Below, piece after piece: positions 14,834 to 44,625 of a stretch of DNA of 64,000 nucleotides. The notes under the pieces were generated by a model. The model had not been told where the DNA came from and ran no database searches. It saw only the letters and a program-made list of their open reading frames with translations. Origin of the DNA: an uncultured Actinomycetes bacterium (GTDB lineage Bacteria; Actinomycetota; Thermoleophilia; UBA2241); NCBI GenBank assembly GCA_963764225.1, contig CAVXRL010000008.1, positions 255,304 through 319,303 on the forward strand. Reading direction: 5' to 3'. Numbering within the stretch: position 1 is the stretch's first letter; the number at the start of each line of letters is the position of its first letter. The translations under genes were made by a program, and so were the position numbers.

Positions 14834-16277
14834 GTGGAGACGTGCAAGATCCTGATCGGCGGCGACTGGGTAGCGGCAAGCGACCACGCCACCTTCGAGA
14901 CGAGGTCCCCGGCCGACCCGGCTGAAGTCCTCGCGGTGTTCCCGTCGGCGACCGCCGCCGACGCGGCGCAGGCGGCCGCCGCCGCCGCCGAGGCGTTCCC
15001 GGCCTGGCGGGCGACGCCGGCGCCGGCCCGCGGCGCCATCCTCTTCAAGGCGGCCGAACTGCTCACCGAGCGCCTGGACGAGGTCGCGCGCACGCTCACG
15101 CGGGAGGAGGGCAAGACGCTCGCCGAGGCCACCGGCGAGGTGCTCCGCGCGCGCGACATCCTCCGGTACTTCGCCGGCGAGGGCTGGCGGATGGGCGGCG
15201 ACGTCCTGCCGCCCAACGCGCCGGACGCGATGCTCTTCAGCCGCCGCGAGCCGCTCGGAGTGGTCGCCGCCATCACCCCGTGGAACTTCCCGATCGCCAT
15301 CCCGGCCTGGAAGCTGGCTCCGGCGCTCGTCTACGGCAACACCGTGGTCTTCAAGCCCGCATCGGACACGCCGCTCACCGCCCTTCGCCTGGTCGAGTGC
15401 CTCGTGGAGGCGGGCCTGCCCGACGGGGTGCTCAACTTCGTCACCGGCTCGGGAGCGGTCGTGGGAGGCGGCGTTCGCCGGCGATCCCGTGGTGCAGGGC
15501 CTCACCTTCACCGGGTCACGAGCCACCGGCTCGGACATCTACCCGCGCGCGGCCGGCCACGCCGCGCGCGTGCAGCTCGAGATGGGCGGCAAGAACCCCA
15601 CGATCGTCCTCGACGACGCCGACGTCGGCCTGGCCGTCAAGCTGGCCGTCCAGGGCGGCTTCGCGCTCACCGGCCAGAGTTGCACCGCCACCAGCCGCGT
15701 GATCGTCGAGGAGGGCATCGCCGACCGCTTCGCCGCCGCGCTGGCCGAGGCCGCCAACGCCCTCAACGTGGGCGACGGCCTCGACCAGGGGGTGCAGATG
15801 GGCCCCGCCGTGAGCGCGGCCCAGCTGGCCACCGACCTGGACTACGTGCGCGTCGGCGAGGAGGAGGGCGCGGACCTGCTGGCCGGAGGCGCCCGGGCCG
15901 GCGAGCGCGGCCACTACCTGCGCCCCACGGTGTTCGACGGCGTAGAGGTGCACAGCCGGCTCGCGCAGGAGGAGATCTTCGGGCCGCTGATCGGGATCAT
16001 CCGCGCCGCCGACGTCGACGACGCGATCTTCAAGGCCAACGCCGTCGGCTACGGGCTCGCGGCGAGCGTCGTGACCAACGACCTGCGCCGCGCGCTCACG
16101 TTCGTCGACCGTATCGAGGCCGGCGTCGTCAAGGTCAACGAGCCGACCACGGGCCTCGCGCTGCAGGCGCCCTTCGGCGGCTTCAAGCAGTCGAGCGCCA
16201 ACACCTTCAAGGAGCAGGGCCCGTCCGCGGTCGACTTCTACACGCGCACCAAGACGGTCTACATCAGCTACGGTTGA
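14834..16277 (+). pseudogene. NAD(P)-dependent aldehyde dehydrogenase, interrupted by a -1 frameshift near 15465 (G-run)
   Basis: N-terminal part reads in the frame of ORF 14834 (…ITPWNFP…VLNFVTGSGAVVG). C-terminal part reads in the frame of ORF 15489 (EAAFAGDPVVQGLTFTGS…EMGGKNP…SCTATSR…EEIFGPL). The two frames meet at gtgggaggcg. Confidence 0.7.
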
Positions 16278-16345: not shown

Positions 16346-16585
16346 ATGGCCGCCGACCCGGCACAAGGCAAGCACATCCTGTTCGTCACAGGTCCTCAGC
16401 GCGAGGCGCTCTACGAGCACTTCTCCGCGCTGTTCCTCGGACGGGACGACGTGGAGGTCCGGATGGACCGCCGCGTCGCCGAGCGCCGGCGCTCGGCGCG
16501 GTCGCCGGTCGCCGGCGAGCGCCGCCGGCAGGAGCGCCGCCGGCGGCCGCCGGAGTGGATCGTCCCGCCCGGCGGCGGCATCTGA
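16346..16585 (+). CDS. hypothetical small protein with poly-Arg C-terminus
   Basis: 79-aa ORF with GC3-biased codons in an otherwise non-coding gap upstream of the methyltransferase operon. No recognisable domain. Confidence 0.3.
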   Translation: MAADPAQGKHILFVTGPQREALYEHFSALFLGRDDVEVRMDRRVAERRRSARSPVAGERRRQERRRRPPEWIVPPGGGI

Positions 16586-16734: not shown

Positions 16735-17538
16735 ATGCTGTTGATGGGTGAATCGATCAACGGGACGCGCAAGCAGGTCGCCGAGGCGATCCAGGCGCGT
16801 GATGCCGAGTTCATCAAGACTCTGGCCAAAGATCAGATCGAGGCAGGCGCGGGCCTGATCGACGTCAACGGCGGCGTCGCCGGCGGCGACGAGGTCGCGG
16901 ACCTCCTGTGGCTCATCGAGGTCGTCATGGGCGTCACCGACATCCAGCTCATGGTGGACTCCGCCAACCCCAAGGCGCTCGACGCCGGCGTGCAGGCCAT
17001 CATCGACGCCGGCGGCAAGGTGCCGTTCATCAACTCGATCAGCGGCGAGCAGCCGCGCATCGACGCGGTGCTGCCGCTCGTGGAGAAGCACAAGTGCCCC
17101 GTCGTCGGCCTCTGCCTCAGTGACGAGGGCATCCCGCCGACCGCCGAGGACCGCTTCGCGGTCGCCAAGCAGATCTACGACCTCTGCACCGAGGCCGGCC
17201 TGCCGGCCGAGGACCTCTGGATCGACCCGCTGGTCATGGCCGTCTCGGCCGACCCCAGCGCTCCCGGCGTCACCATGGAGACCCTCAGGCTGGTCAAGGA
17301 CCGCCTGCCCTCGAAGACCACCGGCGGGCTCAGCAACGTCAGCTTCGGCCTGCCGAACCGCGCGCTGCTCAACCGCACCTTCGTGGCCATGTGTGCCGGC
17401 CTCGGCCTCGACGGGCTGATCGTCGACGTGCGCAACAAGCAGATGATGGCCACCATCAAGTCGATCGAGGCGCTCCGCGGCGAGGACAACTTCTGCGGCT
17501 CGTACCTCAAGGCTCACCGCGCCGGCATCCTGGAGTAG
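16735..17538 (+). CDS. pterin-binding methyltransferase, AcsE/MtrH/MtgA-like (methyl-THF:corrinoid or methylcorrinoid:THF methyltransferase)
   Basis: MLLMGESINGTRK...DVNGG...INSISGE...GLSNVSFGLPNR, collinear with Moorella AcsE (MLIIGERINGMF...LGLSNVSQN...). GGAGG RBS. TATATACT -10-like box ~45 nt upstream. Confidence 0.75.
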   Translation: MLLMGESINGTRKQVAEAIQARDAEFIKTLAKDQIEAGAGLIDVNGGVAGGDEVADLLWLIEVVMGVTDIQLMVDSANPKALDAGVQAIIDAGGKVPFINSISGEQPRIDAVLPLVEKHKCPVVGLCLSDEGIPPTAEDRFAVAKQIYDLCTEAGLPAEDLWIDPLVMAVSADPSAPGVTMETLRLVKDRLPSKTTGGLSNVSFGLPNRALLNRTFVAMCAGLGLDGLIVDVRNKQMMATIKSIEALRGEDNFCGSYLKAHRAGILE

Positions 17539-17549
17539 GGAGCGGCAGC

Positions 17550-18662
17550 GTGAGCGCGCCTGAGCGCTGCCGCCTGCGCGACCTCGGAGTCGCCGTCGGC
17601 ACGCTGCCGGCCGGGCCGCTCAACGCCATCACCGACGTGCCGGGCGTGCGCGTCGGTCACTGCACGGTCTCGTGGGGCGGGCCCGATCTGCCGCAGGGCA
17701 GCGGGCCCGCCCGCACGGGAGTCACAGCCCTCTTCCCGCACGACGGCGACCTGTGGAACGGCCGCGTCGTCGCCGGCGCCCACGCCGCCAACGGGGTGGG
17801 CGAGCTCATCGGCATCAGCGCCATCCGGGAGTGGGGCCTCATCGAGACCCCCATCCTGCTCACCAACTCCCAGAGCGCCGGCGCCGTCTACGACGCCACG
17901 GTCCGCTGGCTCCTTGAGCGCAACCCTCGGGCGGGCATCGACGACGCCGTCATGCCCGTGGTGGGCGAGTGCGACGACGGGTCCCTCAACGACCTGCGCG
18001 GCATGCACGTGCAGCCGGAGCACGTGTGGGCCGCTCTCGAGTCTGCCGCGCCCGGTCCCGTGGAAGAGGGCTGCGTCGGGGCCGGCACCGGCATGTCGTG
18101 CTACGAGTTCAAGGCGGGCATCGGCACCTCGTCCCGCCTCGTCACCGCTCACGGCCGGCAGTACACCGTGGGCGTGCTGGCGCTGGCCAACTTCGGCGTG
18201 CGCCACCGCCTGCTGGTGGACGGCGTGCCGGTCGGGCGTGAGATCACGGACCTCCTGCCGGTGGAGGACCGCGAGGGCTCGTGCATCGTGGTGCTGGCCA
18301 CCGACGCTCCGCTCAGCGCGCGCCAGTGCGCGCGCATGGCCAGGCGCTGCTCGCTCGGGCTGGCGGCGACCGGCTCCTACGCCTCGGACGGCAGCGGCGA
18401 GATCATGGTGGCGTTCTCCACGGCCGCGCGCGTCCCGCGCGCTTCGGCGGAGCCGCTCGTGCTGACCACGGTGGGCAACGACCAGATGTACGGACTCTTC
18501 GAGGCCGCGGTGGACGCAACGGCCGAGAGCGTGTGCAACTCGCTCACGGCCGCGACCACCACGGTCGGGCGCGCCGGCAACACGGTCCACGCGCTGCCGC
18601 TGGACCGCCTCGTGGAGGCGCTGCGGCGCGCCGGCCGCCAGGCGCAGCTGCCCGGAGCCTGA
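17550..18662 (+). CDS. P1-family peptidase (DmpA/L-aminopeptidase D-Ala-esterase/amidase-like, S58)
   Basis: GVRVGHCT, LLTNSQSAGAVYDA and GAGTGMSCYEFKAGIGTSSR motifs. GTG start 11 nt after the previous stop. Confidence 0.75.
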   Translation: MSAPERCRLRDLGVAVGTLPAGPLNAITDVPGVRVGHCTVSWGGPDLPQGSGPARTGVTALFPHDGDLWNGRVVAGAHAANGVGELIGISAIREWGLIETPILLTNSQSAGAVYDATVRWLLERNPRAGIDDAVMPVVGECDDGSLNDLRGMHVQPEHVWAALESAAPGPVEEGCVGAGTGMSCYEFKAGIGTSSRLVTAHGRQYTVGVLALANFGVRHRLLVDGVPVGREITDLLPVEDREGSCIVVLATDAPLSARQCARMARRCSLGLAATGSYASDGSGEIMVAFSTAARVPRASAEPLVLTTVGNDQMYGLFEAAVDATAESVCNSLTAATTTVGRAGNTVHALPLDRLVEALRRAGRQAQLPGA

Positions 18663-18928
18663 GCCGCCACGAGCGTGCGAGCCCGCCCGCCCCGAGTCTG
18701 AGCCGCGCGGCGAGCGCTGCTCCGGGCTCGGACGCGCCTTGCCGCGTCAGGCCTTGCCGCATATCCTGACCCTCTCATCGACGGAACCGGGGGCGGCCAC
18801 CGTCTAACCACCCGAGGCTCTCTCCGGAGACGTCCGCCGGCGGCGCCGCCGCCGGCGACATCAGGGGTCCGGCAACCACGGATGCGAGAAGGGGGTAAGG
18901 GTCCGCGAGACGCCCGTCCCGGGCGCCG

Positions 18929-19912
18929 GTGACCCGCCATGCTGTGGACAAACGCAGGTACTTCATTCGCAAGGTGCTGAACGCGGTGCTCACGATCGTC
19001 CTCGTGGCCTCGTTCAACTTCGCGCTCTTCCGCATCCTCCCGGGCGACCCTGCCCGGCTGCTCCTGCCCAAGGGCAAGACCGACCCGTCGGTCATCGAGA
19101 AGCAGCGCAAGGTGTTCAACCTCGACAAGCCGATGTGGCAGCAGTTCATCTTCTACTGGCGCGACACCGTCAAGGGCGAGTTCGGCATGTCGTTCGCCGA
19201 GAAGCGCCCCGTGACCGAGGTCGTCGCCGAGCGTATCTGGCCCACCGTCCTGCTCGTGGGGGTGGGCACTGTCTTCGCCACCGTCATCGGCATGATCACC
19301 GGGGTGTTCGCGGGGTGGAGACGCAACGGCACCTACGACGTCGTCACTACCAACTTAGGGATGATCCTGTACGCCATGCCGACCTTCTGGTTCGGCCTCC
19401 TGATGATCATGTTGTTCGCCACCAAGCTCCGCTGGTTCCCCACGGGGCGCATGGAGGAGCCCGGCGTGGAGCTGAGCGGCTTCGCGGCGTTCCAGTCGCT
19501 GGCGAAGCACCTGTTCCTGCCGGCGTTCACCTTCGCCATCGCCTACGTGGGTGAGTACCACCTCATCATGCGGAGCTCCATCACCGGGGTGATGAAGGAG
19601 GACTTCACGCTCACGGCCCGCGCCAAGGGCCTCAGCGAGAACTCCGTCCTCTGGAAGCACGTCGTGCCCAACGCCATGTTGCCGACGGTCACCATCGTCA
19701 TGATGAACCTCGGCTTCGTGATGTCCGGCGCCATCCTCGCCGAGAGCGTGTTCAACTGGCCGGGGCTGGGGCTGCTGTCCTACGACTCGATGCAGAAGCG
19801 CGACTATCCGGTCATGCAGGCGGTGTTCCTCATCGCCAGCATCGCCGTGATCGTCGCCAACCTCATCGCCGACATCATGTACTACTACCTCGACCCGCGG
19901 GTGCAGGCATGA
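18929..19912 (+). CDS. ABC transporter permease (DppB/OppB family)
   Basis: FRILPGDPAR and the EAA-loop region, six TM helices. Confidence 0.8.
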   Translation: MTRHAVDKRRYFIRKVLNAVLTIVLVASFNFALFRILPGDPARLLLPKGKTDPSVIEKQRKVFNLDKPMWQQFIFYWRDTVKGEFGMSFAEKRPVTEVVAERIWPTVLLVGVGTVFATVIGMITGVFAGWRRNGTYDVVTTNLGMILYAMPTFWFGLLMIMLFATKLRWFPTGRMEEPGVELSGFAAFQSLAKHLFLPAFTFAIAYVGEYHLIMRSSITGVMKEDFTLTARAKGLSENSVLWKHVVPNAMLPTVTIVMMNLGFVMSGAILAESVFNWPGLGLLSYDSMQKRDYPVMQAVFLIASIAVIVANLIADIMYYYLDPRVQA

Positions 19913-21506
19913 GTACCCTGGTGAGTCAAGACATCGAGCGGGGCACCGGCGGCGCGCCCGTCAGCACCTCCGTCCCCCGCAGGTTCCGGAACTGGGTCAT
20001 CTTCTGGACCATCATCATCTGGTGCGTCCTCGAGTTGCTCACGTACCCGAAGGACGTGCCGATCTCGAGCGGCCTCGCGGCCATCTTCAAGGGGTTCTTC
20101 TCCGAGAGCGTCGGCGCGTATCCCGCCTGGCTCATGGTCCTGCTGGCGATCGCCTGCCTCGCCGCCGGCGTCATCGGCCTGGTGCGCAGGGCCAAGGCCA
20201 GGACCCTCAACATCCTGCTCGTGGTCGAGGGCCTCGTGTTCCTCGCGTGGGCCGTGCTGGCCGGCGGCGGGTTCGGCGGCTGGTCCGCCGTCGCCAACGA
20301 GATCAGCTACAACTGGGTCTTGCAGACGGTCGCCGTCGTGCTCGCCGGCGCCTGCGCGTGGGCCTGGGCCGCCGGCAACCCCGAGCGCGCCGAGCTCACC
20401 ACCTGGAACACGCACCAGGTGTGGAAGCTCTACCGCAGCAACTGGCAGGGCATGGTCGGCCTCGGCATCCTCGTCGTGTTCATCGCCATTGCGCTCTTCG
20501 CGCCGTTCCTCGCCGACCACGCGCTGCTCGACCCGAATGCGCAGATCGCGGATCCGGCCACGGGAGAGCTCTACCTCGCCTACCACCCGCCCACCTGGTA
20601 CTACTACAACTGGTTCGGGACCGACCAGGTGGGGCAGAGCGTGCTCGCCCAGTTCATCTGGAGCGCGCGCATCTCGCTCATGGTCGGGCTGCTCGCCGCC
20701 TTCATGTCCACCGTCCTCGGCGCCGGCATCGGCATCGCCGCCGGCTTCTACGGAGGGTGGCAGGGCGAAGGCTGGATGCGGTTAACAGACGCGTTCCTGG
20801 TCATCCCGTGGCTGCCCCTGGCCATGGTCCTCGCGGCAGCCTGGGGCCAGAACTACTGGATGATCATCCTCATCATCGGCATCACCAGCTGGCCGGGCAC
20901 CGCTCGCGTCATCCGCTCGGACACGCTGCGCGTGCGCGAGCTGAGCTTCATCGAACGCGCCAAGGCCATCGGCTCCAAGAACGGCCACATCATGGGCAAG
21001 CACGTGCTGCCCAACGTGATGCCGCTCATCTTCGCCAACCTCGTGCTCGTGGTCGCCATCGCGATCCTCTCCGAGACGACCCTGTCGTTCCTCGGTCTCG
21101 GCGACCCGCTCAACTTCAGCTGGGGCACCATGCTGCACTACGCCTGGGTCAACGGCGCCGCCGGCCTGCCCGCGTGGTGGTACCTGCTGCCGCCGGGCAT
21201 CGCCATCATCCTGGTCGTGCTGGCCTTCACGTTCATCGGCACGGCCTACGACGAGGTGCTCGATCCCAAGCTGCGCAAGCGCGAGGAGAGCACCGGCGAG
21301 AGCCGCTTCAGCGCTCGCGGCGAGCCGGCCGTGGCCGTCGCCGGCGGCGCCGGCGTCGGCGGAGGCGCCGGCGTGTTCACGCCGGGCGTCCAGACCGACG
21401 ACGCCATGCCCGACTTCAACAAGCCGGCCGGTGGCACCATCGGCGACTCACGTGGCGGCGGCTGGGCCAGCGGCCGCATCCAGGACGACGAGGAAGGAGG
21501 CGAGTG

Positions 21507-21507
<1 letters not shown>
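19909..21507 (+). CDS. ABC transporter permease (DppC/OppC family) with a ~170-aa extra N-terminal membrane domain and a Gly/Ala-rich C-terminal tail
   Basis: Core OppC region (SWPGTARVIRSDTLRVRELSFIERAKAIG) is preceded by 3-4 additional hydrophobic helices and followed by ...AVAVAGGAGVGGGAGV...DDEEGGE. ATGA overlap with the upstream permease. Confidence 0.8.
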
Positions 21508-23628
<2,121 letters not shown>

Positions 23629-23701
23629 TCGTGAGGCCGGCCGGGGCGGTGCGCCGCGAAGCGCATCACCGCCCCGGCCGGCCCGCGTGTGGAGCATACG
23701 G

Positions 23702-25544
23702 ATGAGCCGGGACACGAGACGCAGCGACGCCGCGGCAGGGTACCTGCCGGCCACAGCGAGCCTGCTCTTCGCCGCGCTGCTCACGCTCCTGCTCGCGGCG
23801 CCGCTCCCGGCCGCCGCGGCGGCGTCCGCGCCGGCCGCCGCCGGCACGCCGGCCCCGCTCGAGTACAGCATCGGCACCGCCCAGGACTGTGACGGGCTCA
23901 ACCCGTTCCGCTCCTGGAGCTCGGTCTCCTGGGAGTGCTTCCGTCTCGGCTACGACTTCCTCACCTGGTACGACGCCGACTACCGCCCCGTGCCGGACAT
24001 CGCCGCCTCCTGGGAGGTCTCGGAGGACGGTCTCACCTGGACGTTCCACCTGCGCGAGGGCATGGAGTGGCAGGACGGCGTGCCGCTCACGGCGGCGGAC
24101 GTGGTCTTCACGTACGACCTCGTGCTCACCACGCAGCAGCCGGCCTACGTGCAGTACCTCAGCGGCGTCACCGAGGTGCGCGCGCCGGACGAGACGACCG
24201 TGGTCGTCGTCACGCGGCGCCCCAAGGCCGACATGCTGGCCATCGCCATCCCCATCCTGCCCGGAGCACATCTGGAAGAAGGTGGACCCCGACCGCCTGG
24301 CCGACTTCGAGAACCTGCCGTTCGTCGGGTCGGGGCCGTTCCGCGTCACCGGCCTGGAGGAGGGCAAGGAGGTGACGCTCGAGCCCAATCCCGCCTATCC
24401 GCCGGCGCTGGGCGGGGCTCCGGCGCTGACGCGGCTCACGTTCGTCGTGGGCCGCGACGCGTCCTCGCTGCTCGAGGAGTACAGGGCCGGGCAGCTCGAC
24501 GCCGTGGCCGACTTCCCGGCCACCCTGCAGCCGGCCTACGCCGAGGTGACGGGCACGACCACGGTCGCGGCGCCGGCCGTGGGGTTCCACGAGCTGGGCT
24601 TCAACTGCTGGCAGAGCCCACGGAGCAAGGGCGACCCGCTGCTGCGCGACGCCTCCGTCCGCCGGGCCGTGCACTGGGCCATCGACAAGGACAAGATCGT
24701 CGCCTCGGCCATGGCCGGACTCGCCGAGCCCGGCGCGTCGGTGGTCTCGCCGGCCCAGGGGGACTGGCACTGGGAGGCGCCGGACGACGCGTCGTACCGC
24801 TACGACCCCCGGCGCGCCAAGCAGATCCTGGAGGACGCCGGCTACGCCGACCGCGACGCCGACGGCATCCGCGAGGACGCCGCGGGGCACAAGCTCTCGT
24901 TCCGTCTCACCGCGCTCACCGAGTACCCGGCGGACCAGGAGGCGGCGCGGATGATCGTCCGCTGGTGCCGGGACGTGGGCATCGACCTGCGCCTCGAGGT
25001 CGTCGACGAGGCGGAGTTCAGCGACCGCATCTACGACGACGCCGACTACGACCTGTTCGTCTGGAGCTGGGGCGGCGACATCGATCCGAGCTTCATCCTC
25101 AGCACGTTCACCACGCGCCAGATCATGAGCTGGAGCGACAGCCAGTACTCCGACCCGGTGTACGACCGCCTGTACACGCTGCAGGCGCAGGCGGTCGACC
25201 CCGCTCACCCCGAGGACACGGCCCACCGCAAGGACCTGGTCGACGCCATGCAGAAGCTGCTGTACCGCGACGACCCGTACATCGTGCTCTGGTACAACGT
25301 GAACCTGCAGGCGTTCCGCGCGGACCGCTGGGCCGGGTACGTCATGGCGCCCGCCGGAGACGGGGCGCCGTTCTGGAACCAGCTGCGCTCCAGCTACATC
25401 TCGTTGCGCCCGGTGCGCGCCGCACAGCCCGCCGTGGAGGCGTCCAGGGCCTGGGTGTGGGGCCTGGTGGCGGGCGCCGTCGCCCTGGCCGCCGTCGGCC
25501 TCGCCGTGCTCAGGCGACGGCCACGCAGCACTGAGGATGTGTGA
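23702..25544 (+). pseudogene. ABC substrate-binding protein, family 5 (peptide/nickel type), with a +1 frameshift at ~24263; has a signal peptide and a C-terminal TM anchor
   Basis: Frame of ORF 23687 through ...AIAIPILP, then frame of ORF 23889 from EHIWKKVDPDRLADFENLPFVGSGPF. C-terminal WVWGLVAGAVALAAVGLAVLRRRPR is a predicted TM helix. Confidence 0.7.
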
Positions 25545-25584
25545 CGAAGATCGAACCTGGGACGACGACACGGAGGGGACCCGC

Positions 25585-27057
25585 ATGACCGAGCTCGGCG
25601 CACTCTGGCCCGACGAAGCGATCGAGGCCATCCACCTCGCGGCCCTCACGCTCCTTGAGCGCGCCGGGGTGAGGGTGGAGTCTTCCGTCGCGCGCGAGCT
25701 GTTCCTCGCCGGTGGCTGTGAGGCCGCGGGCGAGCGGGTGGCGATCCCGCGAGCGGTGGTCGACGAGGCGCTGGCGAGCTGCCCGCGCGAGTACCTGCTC
25801 GCCGCGCGCGACCCGGAGCGGTCACTCGCCATGGGCCCCGACCCGGCGCAGACCTACGTCCACAACATGGGGGGCGCCCGCGACGTCAGCGACCCCCGCA
25901 CCGGGGCCGGCCGGCGCGCGACGCTCCACGACCAGGTGCTGGCGACGCGGGTCATGCACCAGCTGCACAACCAGCGGCAGATCACGTCGCTCTGGCAGCC
26001 GCAGGACGTGCCCGACCTGCTGGAGCCGCTGTACTCGTACCTGGTGCTCGCCCACGAGACCGACAAGGCCATCGGGGGGCCGGGCATCTCCCACCCCTTC
26101 CAGGCGCTCTACCTCCAGCAGATGGCGGTCGCCGTCACCGGCGCCGACGGGAGTGACGGCACCTACCCCGTGGACCTCGCGTTCTCGCCGGTCAGCCCGC
26201 TCATCCTGGGCGGCGACGTCTCGGACGCGCTCGTGGAGCAGGTGCGGCGCGGCGGCGCGGCGGTGGAGATCCTCCCGTGCCCCGCCGCCGCGACCACCGC
26301 GCCCGGCTCGCTCTCGGCGGCGCTCGCGCAGCAGCACGCCGAGGTGCTGGCCGGCGTCGTGCTCACGCAGACGGCGGCGCCGGGCACGCCCGTGTACTAC
26401 GGGCCGCGGCTCAGCGCCGTGGACCCGCGCAGCGGGGTGGTCGTGAGCGGCACGCCGGAGACCGGCGTCGGCTCCGTGGCCGCGGTCTTGCTGGCGCGCC
26501 GCTGCGGCCTGGCCTGCGACTGCTACGGGCCGTGCAGCGACAGCAAGGTCATGGACACGCAGTTCGGCTACGAGCGCGCGGTCAACGCGCTGCTCGGGCT
26601 CGCGGCGCGGCCGCGCCTGCTCAGCGGCATCGGCGAGATCCAGGCCGGGGTCGCCAGCTGCCTGGAGGTGCTGGTCGTCGACGACGAGGTGCTCAACAAC
26701 GCGCTGTACGCGCTCACGCCTCGCCCCTGGGACCAGGACGCGCTGGACATCGAGGCGATGGTGGACGGGGTGCTCTCCGGACGGGGGTTCCTGGGCACCA
26801 AGCACACGCGCCGCTACATCCGCTCCGACTTCGTGAGCCCGCTGCTCAGCTACCGCGGCGGGCTCGGCGACTGGCTCTCGGCCGGCCGCGCCGGGCTCGT
26901 CGACCTGGCCTCGGACAAGGTCGCGGAGCTGGTCGACCGCGAGCCGGTCGGGCTGCCGGACGACGTGCTGGACGAGCTCGTCCGGCTCATCGACCGGTGC
27001 GCCGCGGAGATCGGCGTGACGGGGCATCCCGACCCCCGCCGGGCCCTCGGGCTGTAG
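25585..27057 (+). CDS. MttB-superfamily methyltransferase, non-pyrrolysine type (glycine-betaine/quaternary-amine:corrinoid methyltransferase-like, MtgB/MtpB/MtcB group)
   Basis: EAIEAIHLAALTLLERAGVRVES...ELF...G...V.IPRAVVDEALASCPREYLLAARDPE aligns with the MtgB N-terminal region. 490 aa with no in-frame TAG. GGAGGGG RBS. Confidence 0.8.
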   Translation: MTELGALWPDEAIEAIHLAALTLLERAGVRVESSVARELFLAGGCEAAGERVAIPRAVVDEALASCPREYLLAARDPERSLAMGPDPAQTYVHNMGGARDVSDPRTGAGRRATLHDQVLATRVMHQLHNQRQITSLWQPQDVPDLLEPLYSYLVLAHETDKAIGGPGISHPFQALYLQQMAVAVTGADGSDGTYPVDLAFSPVSPLILGGDVSDALVEQVRRGGAAVEILPCPAAATTAPGSLSAALAQQHAEVLAGVVLTQTAAPGTPVYYGPRLSAVDPRSGVVVSGTPETGVGSVAAVLLARRCGLACDCYGPCSDSKVMDTQFGYERAVNALLGLAARPRLLSGIGEIQAGVASCLEVLVVDDEVLNNALYALTPRPWDQDALDIEAMVDGVLSGRGFLGTKHTRRYIRSDFVSPLLSYRGGLGDWLSAGRAGLVDLASDKVAELVDREPVGLPDDVLDELVRLIDRCAAEIGVTGHPDPRRALGL

Positions 27058-27064
27058 ACGCGTG

Positions 27065-28220
27065 ATGGCGATGGTCCGGTCCTCCTCCGACGGCCCGCAC
27101 GATGATCCGGCTTCGCCGATCATTCCATTCGTCCACGTCCAGGCGAGGGGCAGCTACCGCGAGCTCGGCCGCGCGGTCGGCGAGTCCGCGCGCGACCAGG
27201 TGCTGGCGTCGGTCGCCTTCTTCCGCGACAACTTCCCCGCGCTCACCGGCGGCCGGCTGACGTTCGCCGAGGCCGAGCGGCGCGCGCCGGCGTTCGCCGA
27301 GCACGCGCGCCGCCGGCTGCCGCAGTACGTGGCCGAGCTCGAGGGGCTCGCGGAGGGCTCCGGCGTGCCGTTCTCGCAGCTGCTCGTGCTCAATTGCGGC
27401 GAGGAGTTCACGGCCGACGAACCCCACGCGCCGGCGGAGGGGCGCTCGCCACACTCCGGCGACCACTGCACGGCAGTCGCGGTCGCCATGGACGGCCGTC
27501 ACGTCGTCGGTCACAACATGGACTGGTACGTCATCGACGCCGTCAACAACGTGCTCTTCGACCTCACGGTCCCGGACGGCACCCGCGTCATGGGCCTGGC
27601 CGGCGCGCCGTACCTGCTCATGCTCGGCATGAACAGCCACGGCGTGGGCAACGTCAGCAACTCCGTCCACTCCACGGACAACCGGGTGGGCGTGCCCAAC
27701 GTGTTCGTGCGCCGGTCGACGCTCGAGGCGCGGACCCTGGAAGAGGCGCGCGACCGCGGGCTCCTGGCCGACCGCGCCCGCGGCACCAACCAGTTCTTCG
27801 CGGACACCGAGCGGGCGGCTCTGGGACGTCGAGACCTCGGCCACCGCGCACGCGCACGCCGACCACACGGCGGCGGGCTTCATGGCCCACACCAACCACT
27901 ACGTCTCTCCCGAGATGCAACCGTACGAGGGCTACGGCGGCGGGGAGTCCGAAGTCCGTCTCTCGACCGCCGAACGCCTGCTGGCCGAGGGTCTCGCCGC
28001 GGGCGGCGACCCGGTGGACCTCGTCGCCCGCGTGCTGCGCACGCACGAGCCGTCACCCGAGGAGGCCATCTGCGGTCATCCGCTGCCGGGCACGTCTCCC
28101 GCCGATCAAGGCATGACCGTGGGCAGCATCATCTGCGACCTCGACGAGCGGCGCATGTACGCCTGCGCGGGACCGCCGTGCGAGAACGCGTACCAGGTGT
28201 TCGAGATGGGGGAGACGTGA
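27065..28220 (+). pseudogene. C45-family NTN hydrolase / acyl-CoA:6-aminopenicillanic-acid acyltransferase-like, with a +1 frameshift at ~27810-27820
   Basis: GDHCTAVAV N-terminal-nucleophile Cys context. Frame of ORF 27062 through ...GTNQFFADTE, then frame of ORF 27882 (LWDVETSATAHAHADHTAAGFMAHTNHYVSPEMQ...). Confidence 0.65.
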
Positions 28221-28238
28221 CCGTGCACGGAGCTGGTC

Positions 28239-29867
28239 GTGGCCGGCGGGCGCGTCGTCGACGGCTGCGGCAACCCGTGGTTCCGCGGCGACGTCGCCGT
28301 CTCCGGCGACCGCATCGCCGCGATCGGCGCGCCGGGCACGCTGCGCGGGCGGCGCGTCGTCGACGCCGGCGACCGCTACGTCACGCCGGGGTTCATCGAC
28401 CCGCACACCCACTCGGACCTCACCATCCTCCTGCACCCGCGGGCCGAGACGGCGGTGCGCCAGGGCGTGACCACCCACGTCACCGGCAACTGCGGCATGT
28501 CGGCCGCGCCGCTCACCGAACAGCACAGGGTCGACGCGGTGCACAACTGGGCGCACTACGCGTGGGGTCTGGAGCGCGTGGCCTGGGACTGGCGCACGTT
28601 CGGCCAGTACCTGGCGGCCGTCCGCCGCGAGGGCCACGCGATCAACATCGCGCCCCTCGTCGGCCACGGCGCGCTGCGCCTCGCCGTGGCCGGCTTCGCC
28701 GAGCGCGCGGTCACCGAGCGCGAACTGGCGCGCATGGAGCGCCTGCTGGACGCGAGCCTGCGCGCCGGCGCGCACGGCATGTCCAGCGGGCTCGTCTACC
28801 CGCCCGGCTGCTTCGCGACCACCGAGGAGCTCCTGCGGCTCTGCCGCGTGGTCGCCCGCCACCACGGCATCTACACCTCGCACGTGCGCGGCGAGCGCGA
28901 GACGATCCTGCAGGCCGTGGCCGAGGCGCTCGAGCTGGGGCGCGCGGCGGGGTGCCCGGTGGAGGTGTCGCACAACGCGCCCAAATGGGGCGCGCCGGAG
29001 GACGCCGAGGCCAACCTCGAGCTCATCGAGGAGGCGCGCCGCGGCGGCCTGGACGCGACCACCGACAACGACGTGCACACCGACCTCGCGCCGCGCCTCT
29101 CGCGGGCGCTGCCGCAGCCGGTGCTCGACCTCGACCACGACGCGCTCATCCGTCTGCTCTCGGACCGCGAGGCGCGCGAGGCCCTGCACCGGGAGGTGCT
29201 GGAGGACACCCTGCCCGGCGCCGGCTATGCGGGCCTGGTGCGGCACGGCCGCTTCGACCGCATCGTGGTGTTCCACGCCGGCCGCCACCCGGGGCTGCGC
29301 GGCCGCTCGATCGCCGACGTCGCCGCGGAGCGCGGCGCCGACCCGTGGGACACCTTCCTCGACCTCATCGTCGAGGAGGACGACGACATCGTCGGGCTCT
29401 TCGACTACATCGAAGAGCGGAACATCCGCGCCCTGCTGCGGAGCCCGATCGCCATGGTCTCCTCGGACGGGCTCGTCATGCAGCCGGCCGAGGAGCTCGA
29501 CGACGCCTCCGTGTACTGGCCGTGCAGCTACGGTGAGTACCCGGGCGTGCTCGAGCGCTACGTGCGCGAGGAGCCGGTGCTGCGCCTCGAGGAGGCGGTG
29601 CGCAAGATGACCTCCTTCCCGGCGCAGCGCTTCGGCCTGTCCGACCGCGGCGTGCTGCGCCCGGGCCTCAAGGCGGACCTCGTCGTCCTCGACCTCGAGC
29701 GCGTGCGCGACCGCGCCACGAACCTGTTCCCGCACGCGTTCCCGTTCGAGAACATCCCGCACGCCTCGCCGGAGGGCATCGACCTCGTGCTCGTCAACGG
29801 GACGCCGGTGCTCGACGAAGGCGAGATCACCGGCGAGCTGCCGGGCCGCGTGCTCAAGCGCTCCTGA
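28239..29867 (+). CDS. N-acyl-D-amino-acid deacylase (D-aminoacylase), amidohydrolase superfamily
   Basis: GRVVDGCGNPWFRGDVAVSGDRIAAIG, GFIDPHTHSD and HVRGE motifs. GTG start at 28239 slightly truncates the usual N-terminus; a rare CTG at 28233 is an alternative. Confidence 0.75.
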   Translation: MAGGRVVDGCGNPWFRGDVAVSGDRIAAIGAPGTLRGRRVVDAGDRYVTPGFIDPHTHSDLTILLHPRAETAVRQGVTTHVTGNCGMSAAPLTEQHRVDAVHNWAHYAWGLERVAWDWRTFGQYLAAVRREGHAINIAPLVGHGALRLAVAGFAERAVTERELARMERLLDASLRAGAHGMSSGLVYPPGCFATTEELLRLCRVVARHHGIYTSHVRGERETILQAVAEALELGRAAGCPVEVSHNAPKWGAPEDAEANLELIEEARRGGLDATTDNDVHTDLAPRLSRALPQPVLDLDHDALIRLLSDREAREALHREVLEDTLPGAGYAGLVRHGRFDRIVVFHAGRHPGLRGRSIADVAAERGADPWDTFLDLIVEEDDDIVGLFDYIEERNIRALLRSPIAMVSSDGLVMQPAEELDDASVYWPCSYGEYPGVLERYVREEPVLRLEEAVRKMTSFPAQRFGLSDRGVLRPGLKADLVVLDLERVRDRATNLFPHAFPFENIPHASPEGIDLVLVNGTPVLDEGEITGELPGRVLKRS

Positions 29868-29954
29868 CCCGCGGCCCGCCCGGGCCCCGCCAGCATGTAC
29901 AAACCGCCCCCATCCAGAACGAGTGGCGTCTTCCCTCTGGATTTGGACATCGTG

Positions 29955-29960
29955 TAGAAT
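29955..29960 (+). promoter_or_regulatory. -10 box TAGAAT located 7 nt upstream of the pucR-family ATG (leaderless transcript candidate)
   Basis: TAGAATcgcggcgATG. Spacing matches typical actinobacterial leaderless mRNAs. Confidence 0.3.
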
Positions 29961-29967
29961 CGCGGCG

Positions 29968-31608
29968 ATGATCACGGTACAGGACATCCTCGAGATCCCG
30001 GAGCTCAACCTCAAGCTCCTCGCCGGGGGCAAGTCCACCAGCAACCCGGTCCGCTGGGTGCACATCAGCGAGGTGCCCGACCCGACCAGGTGGCTCAAGG
30101 GCGGCGAGCTCCTGCTCACCACCGGCTACAGCTTCGTGGGCGGCGAGGAGCAGCAGGTCGCGCAGATCAAGCGGCTCATCGACCACAACATCTCCGGGCT
30201 CGGGTTCGGCACCGGCTTCAGCTACGACAAGGTGCCGCCCGCGCTGGTCAGCGTGGCGCAGGAGTACGACTTCCCGCTGTTCGAGGTGCCCTACCACGTG
30301 CCGTTCATCGCCATCACCGAGGCTGTGGCGAGCAAGATCGTCAACGAGCAGTACTCCCTGCTGCAGCGCAGCCTGGCCGTGCACGAGAAGCTCACCAAGA
30401 TCGTGCTGGAGGAGAAGGGCCTCGAGGCCATCCTGTCCACGCTCTCGGCCCTCGTGGGCTGCTCCGCCGTGCTCTTCGACTTCCACGGCGTCGTGCTCTG
30501 CGAGGCGGCGTACCGCCGCCACCTGGGCGCGGAGCTCATCGCCGACCTGTGGGGCATGATCAGCGAGCGCCGCGCCGACCGCCAGAACTTCGCCCTCAGC
30601 ATGGAGGGCGTCGGCTCGGGCGTGCAGGTGTATCCCGTGGTCGCGTCGCACCGCATCGGGGCGTTCCTCGCGGCGGTCAAGGACAGCGGCGACTTCAGCG
30701 AGTACGACCGCATCATCCTGCACAACGTCGTCACCGTCACCGCGCTCGAGCTCGTCAAGAAGAAGGCGGTCGCCGAGACCGAGAAGCGGCTGGCCGGCGA
30801 CTTCTTCGACGAGCTCATCGCCAGCGACCTCTACGAGGAGGAGATCGCGCGGCGGCTCGCCTTCTTCGGGCTCGACCCGCAGTCGCCGCACCTCATCGTG
30901 CTCGTCGACATCGACGAGGCGGAGGGCGACGGCGGCGCCGCGGTGGCCCAGCAGGACGTCAAGGAACGGCTGCACTGGACCGTGGACGAGTTCATGGCCA
31001 GGCGCGACCTCTTGGGCATCAGCGCGTCGCGCAGCGATTCGGTGGTGGTGCTCGTGCAGCCGGGCAAGATGGACGCGCGCGAGATCATCGGCCTCGCCGG
31101 GGAGCTGCAGGCGGTCATCGCCGAGATGCTGCCCGAGATCTCCGTCAGCCTCGGCATCGGCCGGCCGCACCGCCAGCTCACCGACCTGCGCCAGAGCTAC
31201 TACGAGGCCAGCTACGCCATCAAGATCCGCAAGCTCAAGGGCGAGCCCAGGGTCATCGCGAGCTTCGACGACCTCGGCTCCTACGGCCTCCTGCTCGGGC
31301 TGCAGGACACGCTCTCGCTGGAGGTCTTCTACGACAGCGTGCTCGGCAAGCTCCAGGAGTACGACGAGCAGAACTCGAGCGACCTGGTCAAGAGCCTCGC
31401 CTGCTTCCTCGAGGCCAACGGCCACTGGGGCGACGCGGCGGAGAAGCTGTACGTCCACCGTCACACGCTGCGCTACCGCATGAAGCGCGTGGAGGAGATC
31501 ACCGGTCGCGACCTCGACCAGTCGCAGGACCGCATGGAGTTCTGGCTGGCGCTCAAGGCCAAGGAGCTCATCGACCAGTCGAAGAAGGGCAAGCCCTCCC
31601 CGGCCTGA
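29968..31608 (+). CDS. PucR/CdaR-family transcriptional regulator
   Basis: MITVQDILEIPELNLKLLAGG N-terminus (PucR N-terminal domain) and a C-terminal HTH (LYVHRHTLRYRMKRVEEITGRDL). Confidence 0.75.
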   Translation: MITVQDILEIPELNLKLLAGGKSTSNPVRWVHISEVPDPTRWLKGGELLLTTGYSFVGGEEQQVAQIKRLIDHNISGLGFGTGFSYDKVPPALVSVAQEYDFPLFEVPYHVPFIAITEAVASKIVNEQYSLLQRSLAVHEKLTKIVLEEKGLEAILSTLSALVGCSAVLFDFHGVVLCEAAYRRHLGAELIADLWGMISERRADRQNFALSMEGVGSGVQVYPVVASHRIGAFLAAVKDSGDFSEYDRIILHNVVTVTALELVKKKAVAETEKRLAGDFFDELIASDLYEEEIARRLAFFGLDPQSPHLIVLVDIDEAEGDGGAAVAQQDVKERLHWTVDEFMARRDLLGISASRSDSVVVLVQPGKMDAREIIGLAGELQAVIAEMLPEISVSLGIGRPHRQLTDLRQSYYEASYAIKIRKLKGEPRVIASFDDLGSYGLLLGLQDTLSLEVFYDSVLGKLQEYDEQNSSDLVKSLACFLEANGHWGDAAEKLYVHRHTLRYRMKRVEEITGRDLDQSQDRMEFWLALKAKELIDQSKKGKPSPA

Positions 31609-31678: not shown

Positions 31679-32416
31679 TCAGGACATCACCAGCGAGCCG
31701 TTGTCGACGGCGATGTCGACTCCCGTGAGGCCGTCCGTCTCCAGGCAGAAGCGGACGGCCGCCCCGATGTCGCCGGGGGCGACGAGCCGCTCGGCGGCCA
31801 CCCGGGCCGCGGCGCGCAGCGTGGCGTCCCGGTGCTCGTCGTCGTCCAGGTCCACCGGCCCGGGCGCCACCCCGCACACGCGCACCAGGTCCGGGGCCCA
31901 CGCCCGGGCGAGGATCCTGACCAGGTGGATCTGGGCCGCCTTGGCGGCGCTGTGCGCGGCGAAGGTGGCCCAGGGCTGCAGGCCCAGATAGTCGGTGAGG
32001 ACCACGATGGCGCCGCCGGTGGTCAGCCGCTCGTGGGCGGCGACGGCGCTGAAGAAGAAGCCTTTGGCGATGGTGTCCAGCGAGGCGTCCCAGGAGGCCT
32101 CGTCGATCTGCTGCGGCTGCTTGGGCACGAACGGCCCGCTGGCCGCGTAGACGAGGCCGTCCAGGCCGCCGAGCGCCTCCGCGGCGGCGGCCACGAGGCC
32201 CGCCGCGCCGGCGGCGGTGCGCACGTCGCCCTCCACCACGAAGGCGGAGGGCGCTCCCGCCGCGAGCAGCGCCTCAGCCTGCGCGCCGGCCTCTTCCGTC
32301 CAGGCGCGCGTGGAGACGGCGAGTGCGGCGCCGCTCCCGGCGAGGTCGAGCGCCACGGCGCGTCCCAGGCGGCGCACCCCGCCGACCACCAGCAGTCTGG
32401 CGCCGGCGACGTTCAC
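31679..32416 (-). CDS. short-chain dehydrogenase/reductase (SDR)
   Basis: LLVVGGVRRLGRAVA (TGxxxGxG-like) and a YxxxK region. GTG start overlaps the stop of the upstream beta-lactamase-like gene (GTGA). Confidence 0.7.
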   Translation of the reverse strand: MNVAGARLLVVGGVRRLGRAVALDLAGSGAALAVSTRAWTEEAGAQAEALLAAGAPSAFVVEGDVRTAAGAAGLVAAAAEALGGLDGLVYAASGPFVPKQPQQIDEASWDASLDTIAKGFFFSAVAAHERLTTGGAIVVLTDYLGLQPWATFAAHSAAKAAQIHLVRILARAWAPDLVRVCGVAPGPVDLDDDEHRDATLRAAARVAAERLVAPGDIGAAVRFCLETDGLTGVDIAVDNGSLVMS

Positions 32417-34969: not shown

Positions 34970-36715
34970 ATGGGCGACCTGCTACGCATCGACCTCACCA
35001 CGCGCACGACTTCAGAAGACACCGTGCCGCCCGAGCTCATCAAGGAGCTCATCGGCGGCAAGGGCATCGGCACGCACTATCTCATGCAGGAGGTGGGCCC
35101 TGAGGTAGAGCCGCTGAGCCCCGAGAACAAGCTGATCTTCGTGGTCGGGCCCATGGGCGGCACCACGATGCTCGGCAGCAACCGCTACGCCCTCTACTTC
35201 GCCTCGCCGCTCACCGGCGGCTACGGCGAGTGCTACTCGGGCGGCAACCTCACGCCCCAGTTCGCGAAGACCGGCTACAAGGTGGTCATCGTCGAGGGCA
35301 AGGCCGACGCGCCCGTCTACCTCGAGATCAGCGAGCAGGGCGCGCAGTTCCACGACGCCTCCGACCTGTGGGGCATGGACGCCTTCAAGGCCGAGGACGA
35401 GATCCTGGCGCGCACCGAGCACAACAAGGCCCAGGCCTGCGTCATCGGACCGGCGGGCGAGAAGCTGGTGCGCTTCGCCTGCGTCAACAACAACTACTGG
35501 CACCAGCTCGGCCGCGGCGGCCCGGGCGCGGTGTACGGCTCCAAGAACCTCAAGGGTCTCGTCTGGCACGGAGACAAGAAGGTCGAGGTCGCGCGGCCGG
35601 ACGACTTCAAGGCGGTCGTGCGCGACCTCATCGAACGCACCAAGGACGACGCGGGCGTCGCCGCCTACCAGCGCGGCGGCACGCTCAACATGGTGCGCAT
35701 CATGAACGGGGCCAACGCGTTCCCCACGCGCTACTGGCGCAAGGGCAGGATGGAGAACTTCGAGCGCATCACGGTCGAGACCATGCTCGCGGAGCACGGC
35801 ACCGTCAACCAGACCTGCCCGCCCTGCGTGTTCAAGTGCGTCAAGCGCAACACGGTGTTCGAGGGGCGCCACAAGGGCCTCGTGTGCGAGGGCCCCGAGT
35901 ACGAGACCGCCTACGTCTTCGGCGGCCTCTGCGAGATCGACGACTTCGCCGAGCTCATGTGGCTCAACGACATCTGCGACCGGCTGGGCGTCGACACCAT
36001 GGACGCCGGCAACCTCGCCGCCCTCGGCATCGAGTGCGCCGAGCGCGGGCTCATCGACGAGAAGCTCACGTGGAACGACCCGGTCGGCGTCGGCGCGTTC
36101 CTCGAGAAGATCTGCCTGCGCGAAGGCATCGGCGACCTGTTCGCCGAGGGCGTCGTGGCGGTCGCCGAAGAATACGGCCTCGAGGACGTCGCGGTGCACG
36201 CCAAAGGCATGGCGCCTCCCGGCTACGAGCCGCGCAAGATGAAGGGCATGGGCCTCGGCTTCGCGACCACCGCGCGCGGCGCCTGCCACCTGCGCGCCAC
36301 CATGTACAAGCCCGAGCTCATGGGCGTCACCACCTACGGCGAGGTCGCGGACAAGGCTCCCGTCTACGTGGACTGGGAGGACCGCCTCACCATCATGGAC
36401 ACGCTCGTCTACTGCCGCTTCTACCGCGACCTGGTGCAGTGGCCGTACATCACCGCCGTGGTCAACGCCGTCATCGGCACCGACTACACCGCGGACGACC
36501 TGCACCGCATCGCCAACCGCATCATCACGATGACGCACGAGTTCAACGCGGCGCGGGGCATCGGACGCGAGACCGAGAAGCTCCCGGACTGGGTCACCGA
36601 GAAGCCCATGGAGGACGAGGAGGCGCTCACGTTCCCGCAGGGCGAGATGACGTACATGCTCGGCGAGTATTACAAGCTGCGCGGCTGGGGCGAGCTGCCG
36701 CCGCTGGAGGCCTGA
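34970..36715 (+). CDS. aldehyde:ferredoxin oxidoreductase (tungsten/molybdopterin AOR family)
   Basis: 581 aa. N-terminal LRIDLTTRT...IGGKGIGTHYL and a Cys cluster (CPPCVFKC) for [4Fe-4S], collinear with the AOR family. GAAGGAG RBS. Confidence 0.85.
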   Translation: MGDLLRIDLTTRTTSEDTVPPELIKELIGGKGIGTHYLMQEVGPEVEPLSPENKLIFVVGPMGGTTMLGSNRYALYFASPLTGGYGECYSGGNLTPQFAKTGYKVVIVEGKADAPVYLEISEQGAQFHDASDLWGMDAFKAEDEILARTEHNKAQACVIGPAGEKLVRFACVNNNYWHQLGRGGPGAVYGSKNLKGLVWHGDKKVEVARPDDFKAVVRDLIERTKDDAGVAAYQRGGTLNMVRIMNGANAFPTRYWRKGRMENFERITVETMLAEHGTVNQTCPPCVFKCVKRNTVFEGRHKGLVCEGPEYETAYVFGGLCEIDDFAELMWLNDICDRLGVDTMDAGNLAALGIECAERGLIDEKLTWNDPVGVGAFLEKICLREGIGDLFAEGVVAVAEEYGLEDVAVHAKGMAPPGYEPRKMKGMGLGFATTARGACHLRATMYKPELMGVTTYGEVADKAPVYVDWEDRLTIMDTLVYCRFYRDLVQWPYITAVVNAVIGTDYTADDLHRIANRIITMTHEFNAARGIGRETEKLPDWVTEKPMEDEEALTFPQGEMTYMLGEYYKLRGWGELPPLEA

Positions 36716-44614: not shown

Positions 44615-44625
44615 CGGCGCGCGCC

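Follow-up and report, generated by a model that had tools for sequence, protein, structure and literature searches.

To our knowledge, corrinoid-dependent enzymes of the MttB superfamily are known only for trimethylamine and a few acidic quaternary amines in free form (glycine betaine, proline betaine, carnitine, γ-butyrobetaine, and phosphocholine). The described systems closest to the one considered here are MtgB-MtgC-MtgA from Desulfitobacterium hafniense and the MtpB, MtcB, MtyB, and MthB enzymes from Eubacterium limosum, which are found with MtqC, MtqA, and RamQ. Both combine a pyrrolysine-free MttB-type methyltransferase with a methyltransferase of the AcsE/MtgA type. The MtgBCD system from Ruegeria pomeroyi catalyzes the aerobic demethylation of glycine betaine, with parts that are shared with a split methionine synthase (PMC12478193). 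We have now found a candidate for the same pair of methyltransferases in a 64,000-nucleotide stretch of DNA (the window; positions 255,304 to 319,303 of contig CAVXRL010000008.1) from an uncultured bacterium of the Thermoleophilia, which, like R. pomeroyi, is a non-acetogenic and non-methanogenic host. Here the pair is embedded among genes for a peptide importer and for hydrolases, an arrangement that has not been reported for the systems from D. hafniense and E. limosum. We propose, with a probability of roughly 60%, that these genes form a conserved catabolic cluster in which the import and hydrolysis of a small amide-linked compound are coupled to the corrinoid- and tetrahydrofolate (THF)-dependent removal of methyl groups.

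In the proposed pathway, the compound would be imported by a membrane-anchored family-5 solute-binding protein and OppBCDF, and it would be cleaved by enzymes of the S58 DmpA type, the C45 N-terminal nucleophile (Ntn) cysteine acylase type, and the D-aminoacylase type. The MttB-family enzyme would move a methyl group of the compound, or of a fragment derived from it, onto a corrinoid carrier whose gene lies at another place in the genome, and the AcsE/MtgA-type enzyme would pass it to THF. The island would be regulated by a PucR-type protein. The sequences themselves show the gene content, the family memberships, the catalytic motifs, the conservation of the cluster, and its recurrence with other peptidases elsewhere, whereas the identity of the substrate, the partner corrinoid protein, the direction in which the methyl group moves, and co-transcription are what we infer in this scheme.

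The stretch is ~70% G+C, and its reading frames are clean when judged by the G+C content at the third codon position. All of the genes between 16.7 and 31.6 kb are on the plus strand. The families named in the preliminary description of this DNA were all recovered at their positions by searches of Pfam, NCBIfam, and the PDB. After correction of the reading frames, the cluster consists of ten structural genes and the PucR regulator, rather than the nine genes and regulator that were originally counted. The genes, with functions predicted from sequence, are as follows.

16735-17538, plus strand: AcsE/MtgA-type pterin-binding methyltransferase (methylcorrinoid:THF), 267 amino acids; PF00809, PRK07535.
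17550-18662, plus strand: peptidase S58 (DmpA/BapA-type Ntn aminopeptidase/amidase), 370 amino acids; PF03576.
18944-19912, plus strand: OppB/DppB-type permease, alternative GTG start at 18929; BPD_transp_1 and BPD_transp_1_N.
19909-21507, plus strand: OppC/DppC-type permease, 532 amino acids; OppC_N and BPD_transp_1.
21507-22588, plus strand: OppD ATPase, frame reconstructed by alignment to the orthologues in loci L004 and L002; ABC_tran and oligo_HPY.
22591-23628, plus strand: OppF ATPase, 345 amino acids; ABC_tran and oligo_HPY.
23687-25544, plus strand: family-5 solute-binding protein, split over two frames; SBP_bac_5.
25585-27057, plus strand: MttB-superfamily methyltransferase without pyrrolysine, 490 amino acids; PF06253, Arg-less A-C-D-C-Y subfamily.
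27065-28220, plus strand: C45 Ntn cysteine hydrolase/acyltransferase (AAT type), split over two frames; NF040521.
28217-29867, plus strand: D-aminoacylase-type metallo-amidohydrolase (Amidohydro_3), intact open reading frame (ORF) from 28239; PF07969.
29968-31608, plus strand: PucR-family regulator; Pfam PucR, GGDEF_2, and HTH_30 domains.

The tight packing with overlapping ends that had been described was reproduced. The intergenic gaps range from -4 to +73 nt, except that wider ones precede OppB (266-281 nt) and PucR (100 nt). The genes for OppC and OppB overlap by 4 nt, the ancestral GTG start of the Amidohydro_3 gene overlaps the stop codon of the C45 gene, and a GGAGG that resembles a ribosome-binding site is located 8 nt upstream of the ATG of the pterin methyltransferase. 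Given this spacing and the common strand, the genes may be co-transcribed.

Both methyltransferases fall within the families that had been claimed for them. The protein encoded at 16735 matches PF00809 (77 bits) and the NCBIfam model PRK07535 for methyl-THF:corrinoid methyltransferase (288 bits; cutoff 259). Its best match in the PDB is MeTr/AcsE (2e7f, E = 9e-47), and a methyltransferase from D. hafniense is also found. It is therefore predicted to be a methyl-THF:corrinoid methyltransferase of the AcsE/MtgA type, and neither a dihydropteroate synthase nor MetH. The protein encoded at 25585 matches PF06253 with 225 bits (cutoff 25) over residues 23-493 of a 506-residue ORF, and its PDB matches include MtgB (9yce, E = 2e-44) and MttB (7xcl, E = 1e-42). 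It is 100% identical to a database protein of 490 residues (P0001), and its relatives are nearly all from metagenome-assembled genomes (MAGs) of Thermoleophilia, many of them from a single long-read survey of soils (isolate names MFDxxxxx). The ORF contains no in-frame UAG, the pyrrolysine of MttB from M. barkeri aligns with Cys317, and the score against TIGR02369 (246 bits) is below the cutoff of 525. The window protein is thus not the pyrrolysine-dependent trimethylamine methyltransferase, MttB proper.

The substrate site is where the window MttB departs from the characterized enzymes. In the structure of MtgB with bound glycine betaine, and in the associated mutants, the binding residues were identified as Y97, R312, H348, and F356 (PMC13080624). 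R312 forms a salt bridge with the acid group of the substrate, it is kept in all of the characterized members (MtgB, MtcB, MtyB, MtpB, and MthB), and the R312L mutant is inactive (PMC13080624). The residues at these four positions in the window protein are Met95, Asp312, Ser347, and Gly355, respectively. The column for R312 is held in register by the conserved G-(L/V) and DSK motifs on either side of it, with no gap in the intervening alignment. Since all four binding residues differ, glycine betaine was rejected as the substrate. The betaine-like substrate suggested in the preliminary description was an extrapolation, made for an MttB protein that lacks the Arg and, as a less strict marker, the His by which the acid group is bound in every characterized quaternary-amine enzyme. 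The MtgB of the R. pomeroyi type acts on free glycine betaine delivered by betaine transporters, whereas the window MttB is only ~26-30% identical to proteins of the MtgB type, which retain the Arg (29% for MtgB from D. hafniense and 26% for the homologue in L058, from Rhodobacteraceae (Sedimentitalea)).

Across ~130 sequences of the subfamily, H93-N94, C232-P233, R275, A310-C311-D312-C313-Y314, P343-R344, and S347 are invariant. One sister clade, which is that of the S9/M20 clusters described below, keeps H-N, C232, R275, Y314, and S347, but its residue 312 is Asn and its residues 311 and 313 are Val ("PVNVY"); a further sister clade carries "IADVY". Among the 120 nearest full-length representatives of clusters formed at 50% identity, Asp or Asn occupies the R312 position in 67, and Arg in 8. 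The clade-specific Arg275 might take over the binding of the acid group. The alignment places the window MttB within a large Arg-less branch of the superfamily that has no characterized member and in which the pocket appears to be remodelled.

The invariance of C232 and of A-C-D-C-Y, the latter at the position of the substrate-binding Arg of MtgB, raised the question of whether this protein has a different chemistry altogether. Cys232, Cys311, and Cys313 might support a metal-assisted methyl transfer to or from a thiol, a thioether, or oxygen, or the enzyme might act without a corrinoid protein, none of which is encoded nearby. The spacing C...x78...C-x-C recalls the Cys triads of the zinc-dependent thiol methyltransferases. 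However, sister clades with the same genomic context have Val or Ala in place of C311 and C313, so that these two residues are not required for the shared function, and the zinc site of three cysteines was downgraded as a candidate for this reason. In addition, clusters of the sister clade encode a corrinoid protein and its activase, RACo, and the partner gene in the window scores above the threshold for a methyl-THF:corrinoid methyltransferase. We regard a different chemistry as very unlikely.

The S58 and Amidohydro_3 hydrolases could be assigned to their families, and the C45 hydrolase provisionally so, with catalytic motifs in place in all three. The S58 protein matches PF03576 with 382 bits over profile positions 1-307 of 307, and in the PDB it matches 2drh (PH0078, E = 5e-94), DmpA (1b65, E = 3e-72), and BapA. 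Its Gly243-Ser244 aligns with the GS motif of 2drh, and in DmpA the GS motif is the site of self-cleavage and provides the nucleophile. The C45 protein scores 125 bits with NF040521 (cutoff 85), although the ORF in the window is broken by a +1 insertion. An intact orthologue of 367 residues aligns with AAT from Penicillium (2x1d), and the Cys of the GDHC-T motif, which is present in the window protein, corresponds to that of DGC-T in AAT, which we take to be the nucleophile of the latter enzyme, Cys103. The Amidohydro_3 protein matches D-aminoacylase (1m7j, E = 3e-72) and also the N-acyl-D-Glu deacylase. Its DPHTHSD, TGNCG, SHVR, and VSHN segments align with the motifs of D-aminoacylase that hold the HxH, Cys, and His ligands, and by homology and these metal-ligand motifs it is predicted to be of the D-aminoacylase type. 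All three appear to be of types that act on unusual or blocked N-termini or on N-acyl bonds. The homology to DmpA/BapA, to the D-aminoacylase and N-acyl-D-Glu deacylase from Alcaligenes, and to AAT is clear, but the identity is modest and the substrates of those enzymes are not transferable. None of these enzymes is known to act with a methyltransferase, whereas the hydrolases in the window share a cluster with the pair. The D-amino-acid or N-acyl-D-amino-acid type of substrate that was also suggested previously was drawn solely from the names of these families.

The importer is a full Opp/Dpp set with a family-5 solute-binding protein, two permeases, and two ATPases with oligo_HPY tails, of which OppD and the binding protein are frameshifted in this copy. 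OppB (aligned from 18944) and OppF (from the ATG at 22591) are each 94% identical to the orthologues in L002, and OppC, with its N-terminal extension of ~160 residues, has the same length in L002. This is the five-component architecture of the Dpp, Opp, and Ddp importers, and a hydrolase is encoded alongside it, as in ddpXABCDF of E. coli for D-Ala-D-Ala. The binding protein from the window is only remotely related to the characterized ones (the best match in the PDB is AppA, 1xoc, E = 4e-33, 118 bits). Its N-terminus has a signal-like segment, and its C-terminus (25330-25544) consists of a hydrophobic helix followed by RRRPRS. This segment looks like a membrane anchor rather than a lipobox, which would also set the protein apart from the characterized importers. 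In the relatives, the island always ends with PucR, even where cassettes have been inserted or deleted. The N-terminal domain of this regulator in the window matches PmfR weakly (115 bits; cutoff 800), which is a similarity at the level of the family only. PmfR activates the operon for the folate-linked demethylation of N-methyl-aminobutyrate in Arthrobacter.

The preliminary description treated the methyltransferase pair, the importer, and the hydrolases as one functional unit. This proposal is now backed by distant MttB genes that reside in clusters of the same kind with different peptidases. The distant loci were obtained by a metagenome scan with the subfamily alignment, and their MttB homologues are 29-38% identical to that of the window. 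Opp/Dpp components, peptidases, or both were found in 24 of the 33 such loci that have 4 kb or more of flanking sequence. The most complete is L142 (3737-21416), in which 15 genes are found on one strand with gaps of no more than ~150 nt. The order is GntR, a B12-binding corrinoid protein, MttB, MttB, S9, MttB, M20, MttB, SBP5, OppB, OppC, OppD, OppF, Pterin_bind, and RACo, where SBP5 denotes the family-5 solute-binding protein. The four MttB paralogues are 20-30% identical to one another, and none contains the Arg of R312. L141, L143, L113, and L105 are close variants of L142. L113 has the order corrinoid protein...SBP5-OppBCDF-MttB-M20-Pterin_bind, and L105 and L114 have S9-MttB-M20-Pterin_bind, with RACo also present in L105. 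The peptidases in these loci, of the S9 prolyl-oligopeptidase/Dpp5-like type and the M20 aminoacylase/CpsA type (TIGR01891), are not homologous to those of the window; creatininase-family, C45, or Amidohydro_3 genes occur occasionally. The close relatives of the MttB from L113 that have a named source are from MAGs of Chloroflexota/Anaerolineae, and the distant clusters are probably of this origin, from sediments.

The sister clusters (L142, L141, L113, and L105) thus follow the same logic as the window. They combine amide hydrolases and an Opp-type importer with a pterin methyltransferase and with an MttB that lacks the Arg and belongs to the broad clade of the window protein (H-N / C232 / R275 / D-or-N-x-Y / S), and these genes share one strand. 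They differ in the use of S9 and M20 enzymes where the window has S58, C45, and Amidohydro_3, and of GntR where the window has PucR. Unlike the window, they carry 3-4 divergent MttB paralogues together with a corrinoid protein and RACo. By analogy, the M20 enzyme would be the functional counterpart of the D-aminoacylase-type enzyme, and each kind of cluster contains an aminoacylase-type enzyme as well as a member of a family known for N-termini that are atypical or blocked, namely S58 and C45 in the window and S9 in the sister clusters. The distant clusters that contain a corrinoid protein and RACo, at least, are shown by these genes to depend on corrinoid. Chance adjacency would hardly account for the same functional mixture having been put together from different components in different phyla. 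The sister clusters lend context rather than function to the window, being themselves uncharacterized.

Closer to the window, the order Pterin, S58, OppBCDF, SBP5, MttB, C45, Amidohydro_3, PucR is kept in ~45 MAG loci from Thermoleophilia/Actinomycetota, and the cluster is intact in every short-read assembly. The whole 22-kb region is syntenic in Thermoleophilia, including the flanking genes for aldehyde dehydrogenase (Aldh), a short-chain dehydrogenase/reductase (SDR), alanine dehydrogenase (AlaDH), and AFOR. Variants of the island are modular and say more than this synteny. L036 (7204-13264) has a minimal island of Pterin_bind, SBP5, MttB, and PucR without permeases, ATPases, or hydrolases, and L035 and L059 are without Amidohydro_3. 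L011 (11659-15796) and L016 (9108-13389) have a second cassette between Amidohydro_3 and PucR that encodes another SBP5 (~38% identity), an enzyme of the ornithine-cyclodeaminase/mu-crystallin family, and an MttB paralogue (54% identity) with A-C-D-C-Y. In L036, L011, and L016, the MttB is kept together with a family-5 binding protein.

A number of observations weigh against a single catabolic unit. The synteny was rejected as proof of an operon because the unrelated flanking genes are equally syntenic in Thermoleophilia. The figure of 24 out of 33 for the distant loci is not an unbiased frequency, since these loci were picked by a shared sequence motif. The closest relatives of the MttB in Chloroflexota and other Actinomycetota (L039-41 and L046-48) are alone or beside a HAD hydrolase; next to them are genes for a histidine kinase, VIT transporter, sulfate permease, and HAD hydrolase, with no corrinoid protein adjacent. 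GC-rich hairpins downstream of the S58 and Amidohydro_3 genes may divide the cluster into two or three transcripts. The loss of R312 and H348, which are Asp and Ser in the window MttB, may mean that its chemistry or substrate class differs from that of every characterized member. Finally, the proposed chemistry requires a corrinoid protein and an activase, but no corrinoid protein, no RACo/RamA (by tblastn), and no cobalamin riboswitch were found in the 64-kb window or within 10 kb on either side of the MttB gene in any of the Thermoleophilia loci. The lack of a nearby corrinoid protein and activase also distinguishes the window from the MtgB system.

The absence of a local corrinoid protein is a genuine gap, but it is not disqualifying, since unlinked corrinoid proteins are common among the characterized systems. 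In both R. pomeroyi (PMC12478193) and E. limosum (PMC8604678), separate loci encode the MttB-type enzymes, the corrinoid protein, and the THF methyltransferase. The corrinoid protein of E. limosum need not be co-encoded (PMC8604678), and the same may apply to the window.

Several of these observations can be accommodated by two unrelated modules that lie side by side through shared ancestry, one for the salvage of peptides with D- or β-amino acids (for example, from the cell wall) and the other an independent methyltransferase pair. The synteny of the 22-kb region with its unrelated flanks and the orphan state of the close MttB homologues are as expected for this arrangement. The S58 enzyme, the D-aminoacylase, the class A β-lactamase-like gene, dtd, AlaDH, and a nearby NlpC/P60 gene would all fit the turnover of D-amino-acid peptides; dtd, the SDR, and the β-lactamase-like gene had been noted in the vicinity previously and are indeed present. 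We nevertheless consider two modules to be unlikely. Rather than lying next to each other, the two methyltransferase genes are interspersed among those for transport and hydrolysis on the same strand, so that they bracket and interrupt the importer genes. In L036, the permeases and hydrolases have been lost, yet Pterin-SBP5-MttB-PucR is retained. The mixture also recurs with non-homologous peptidases in unrelated lineages, where a single array includes the corrinoid protein and RACo as well.

For a single catabolic unit, our working guess for the substrate is a di- or oligopeptide that is methylated or blocked at its N-terminus, or a betaine in amide linkage. The latter is attractive because of the loss of the carboxylate-binding Arg and His, and because of the types of hydrolases found in both kinds of cluster. 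A broader proposal, which we put forward tentatively as possible rather than probable, is that the Arg-less branch as a whole demethylates quaternary ammonium groups in amide linkage or freshly released from peptides (for example, those of N-terminal trimethyl-Ala or dimethyl-Pro, or of trimethyl-lysine residues from proteins) in conjunction with Opp import and peptidases that tolerate blocked termini.

The substrate could instead be a free small zwitterion such as proline betaine, hydroxyproline betaine, or an opine-like imino acid, for which the SBP5 would have been recruited, as such proteins have been for opines and nickel chelates, and which the MttB would demethylate directly, with the hydrolases in side roles. 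Family-5 binding proteins also bind opines and metallophores, and matches of the AgaA, NikA, and CntA types were obtained. The upstream Aldh (14834-16277) is nearest to the 2,5-dioxovalerate/α-ketoglutarate-semialdehyde dehydrogenase of hydroxyproline-type pathways (607 bits, below the cutoff), and the second cassette in L011 and L016 includes the ornithine-cyclodeaminase/mu-crystallin enzyme. There is a precedent in MtpB, which acts on proline betaine (PMC13080624). We doubt this explanation, given that the characterized enzymes for acidic betaines keep R312 and the clade from the window does not, and that the two to three amide hydrolases conserved in every type of cluster would be left unexplained.

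The arrangement had been regarded as undescribed, and this holds to the extent that we found no published description of it. It is not a unique oddity, but rather one variant of a widespread architecture. We found no paper that links MttB-family genes to peptidases or to Opp/peptide importers, and for MttB in Thermoleophilia we found gene lists only. The components and the logic of the methyl transfer are known; as far as we found, neither the Arg-less clade nor the link with the import and hydrolysis of peptides has been described. The repeated pairing with peptide importers and hydrolases for blocked peptides, in Thermoleophilia from soils and probably in Chloroflexota/Anaerolineae from sediments, hints at a new class of substrate and at an unnoticed route by which the methyl groups of peptide-like compounds enter the folate C1 pool. 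If the substrates are amide-linked or released from peptides, this would be the first catabolic route for methylated residues derived from proteins, and these would be the first peptide substrates for the corrinoid methyltransferases. Counts of "mttB" in metagenomes are routinely taken as the potential for use of methylamine or glycine betaine, a reading that is probably wrong for the Arg-less clade. The findings are thus relevant to research on corrinoid methyltransferases and on the cycling of methylated amines in soils and sediments.

The reading frames in this copy required correction at eight positions in the window. All eight are +1 insertions, recognized by comparison with the orthologues or by the order of the domains. 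The sites are as follows.

Inside the cluster: ~22496 and ~22575, OppD; 24259-24261, SBP5; ~27810, C45; ~28229, start of Amidohydro_3.
Outside the cluster: ~15465, Aldh; ~32791, β-lactamase-like gene; ~40412-40423, tilS.

The fused OppD-OppF ATPase of the preliminary description is a product of these insertions. The true stop codon of OppD is the TGA at 22586-22588, and the two insertions near the end of the gene put it out of frame, which creates an apparent ORF of 1227 codons. In the relatives, OppD (359 residues) and OppF (346 residues) are encoded by separate genes. The insertion in SBP5 is CCC in place of CC by alignment to three relatives, and that in Amidohydro_3 directly follows the ancestral GTG start.

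Five frameshifts across four genes of the cluster (two in OppD and one each in SBP5, C45, and the start of Amidohydro_3), with seven of the eight in the window located within 14.8-33.4 kb, might be taken as the signature of an array that is decaying into pseudogenes in this genome. Such decay is extremely unlikely. The codon bias and the 82-94% identity to the orthologues continue unbroken past each shift, and the essential gene tilS is likewise split. Among the orthologous gene copies, none of 146 is split in short-read MAGs, compared with 58 of 424 in long-read contigs, where any gene is hit at random. At three of the four insertion sites that could be aligned with orthologues, the relatives have CCGG, which suggests a systematic error of long-read base calling that is possibly linked to methylation. 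The comparison of short and long reads, together with the split tilS, led us to reject the pseudogene reading; judged from the sequences and the read types, the frameshifts are almost certainly errors of the long-read assembly, and the cluster would be functional in the lineage.

Scans for promoters, terminators, and repeats gave results no better than for shuffled sequence, apart from the GC-rich hairpins. An Rfam scan of the whole window returned no riboswitch for cobalamin, THF, or S-adenosylmethionine, and only one tRNA. Between the Aldh and the pterin methyltransferase there is an ORF of 79 residues (16346-16585, plus strand) with an Arg-rich tail (MAADPAQGKHILFVTGPQREALYEHF...). It is present in the same place in most of the relatives with 53-77% identity, and it matches no family in Pfam or NCBIfam. 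Of the orphan MttB genes, those of L046, L047, and L048 (~50% identical), which come from MAGs of other Actinomycetota, have a gene for a HAD-family hydrolase after them, and L029 (1574-2233) likewise has a HAD gene upstream of its cluster.

On the other side of the cluster, the best match of the SDR (31682-32416, minus strand) is a pteridine reductase, at a score below the threshold. The flanking Aldh or SDR could have an accessory function for the island. A gene for an aldehyde:ferredoxin oxidoreductase (AFOR) with AFOR_N and AFOR_C domains (34970-36715, plus strand), in an actinobacterium of 70% G+C, adjoins the alanine dehydrogenase gene in all of the relatives, and its presence hints at an anaerobic or facultative lifestyle. 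A block for folate biosynthesis (44036-46342, plus strand) is located 13 kb downstream. It contains FolP (44611-45456; Pterin_bind, 302 bits), which is a separate gene from the pterin methyltransferase of the cluster, so that the window encodes two very different pterin-binding proteins. Judging by the N-terminal sequences, the neighbors of FolP may be folE and folB/folK.

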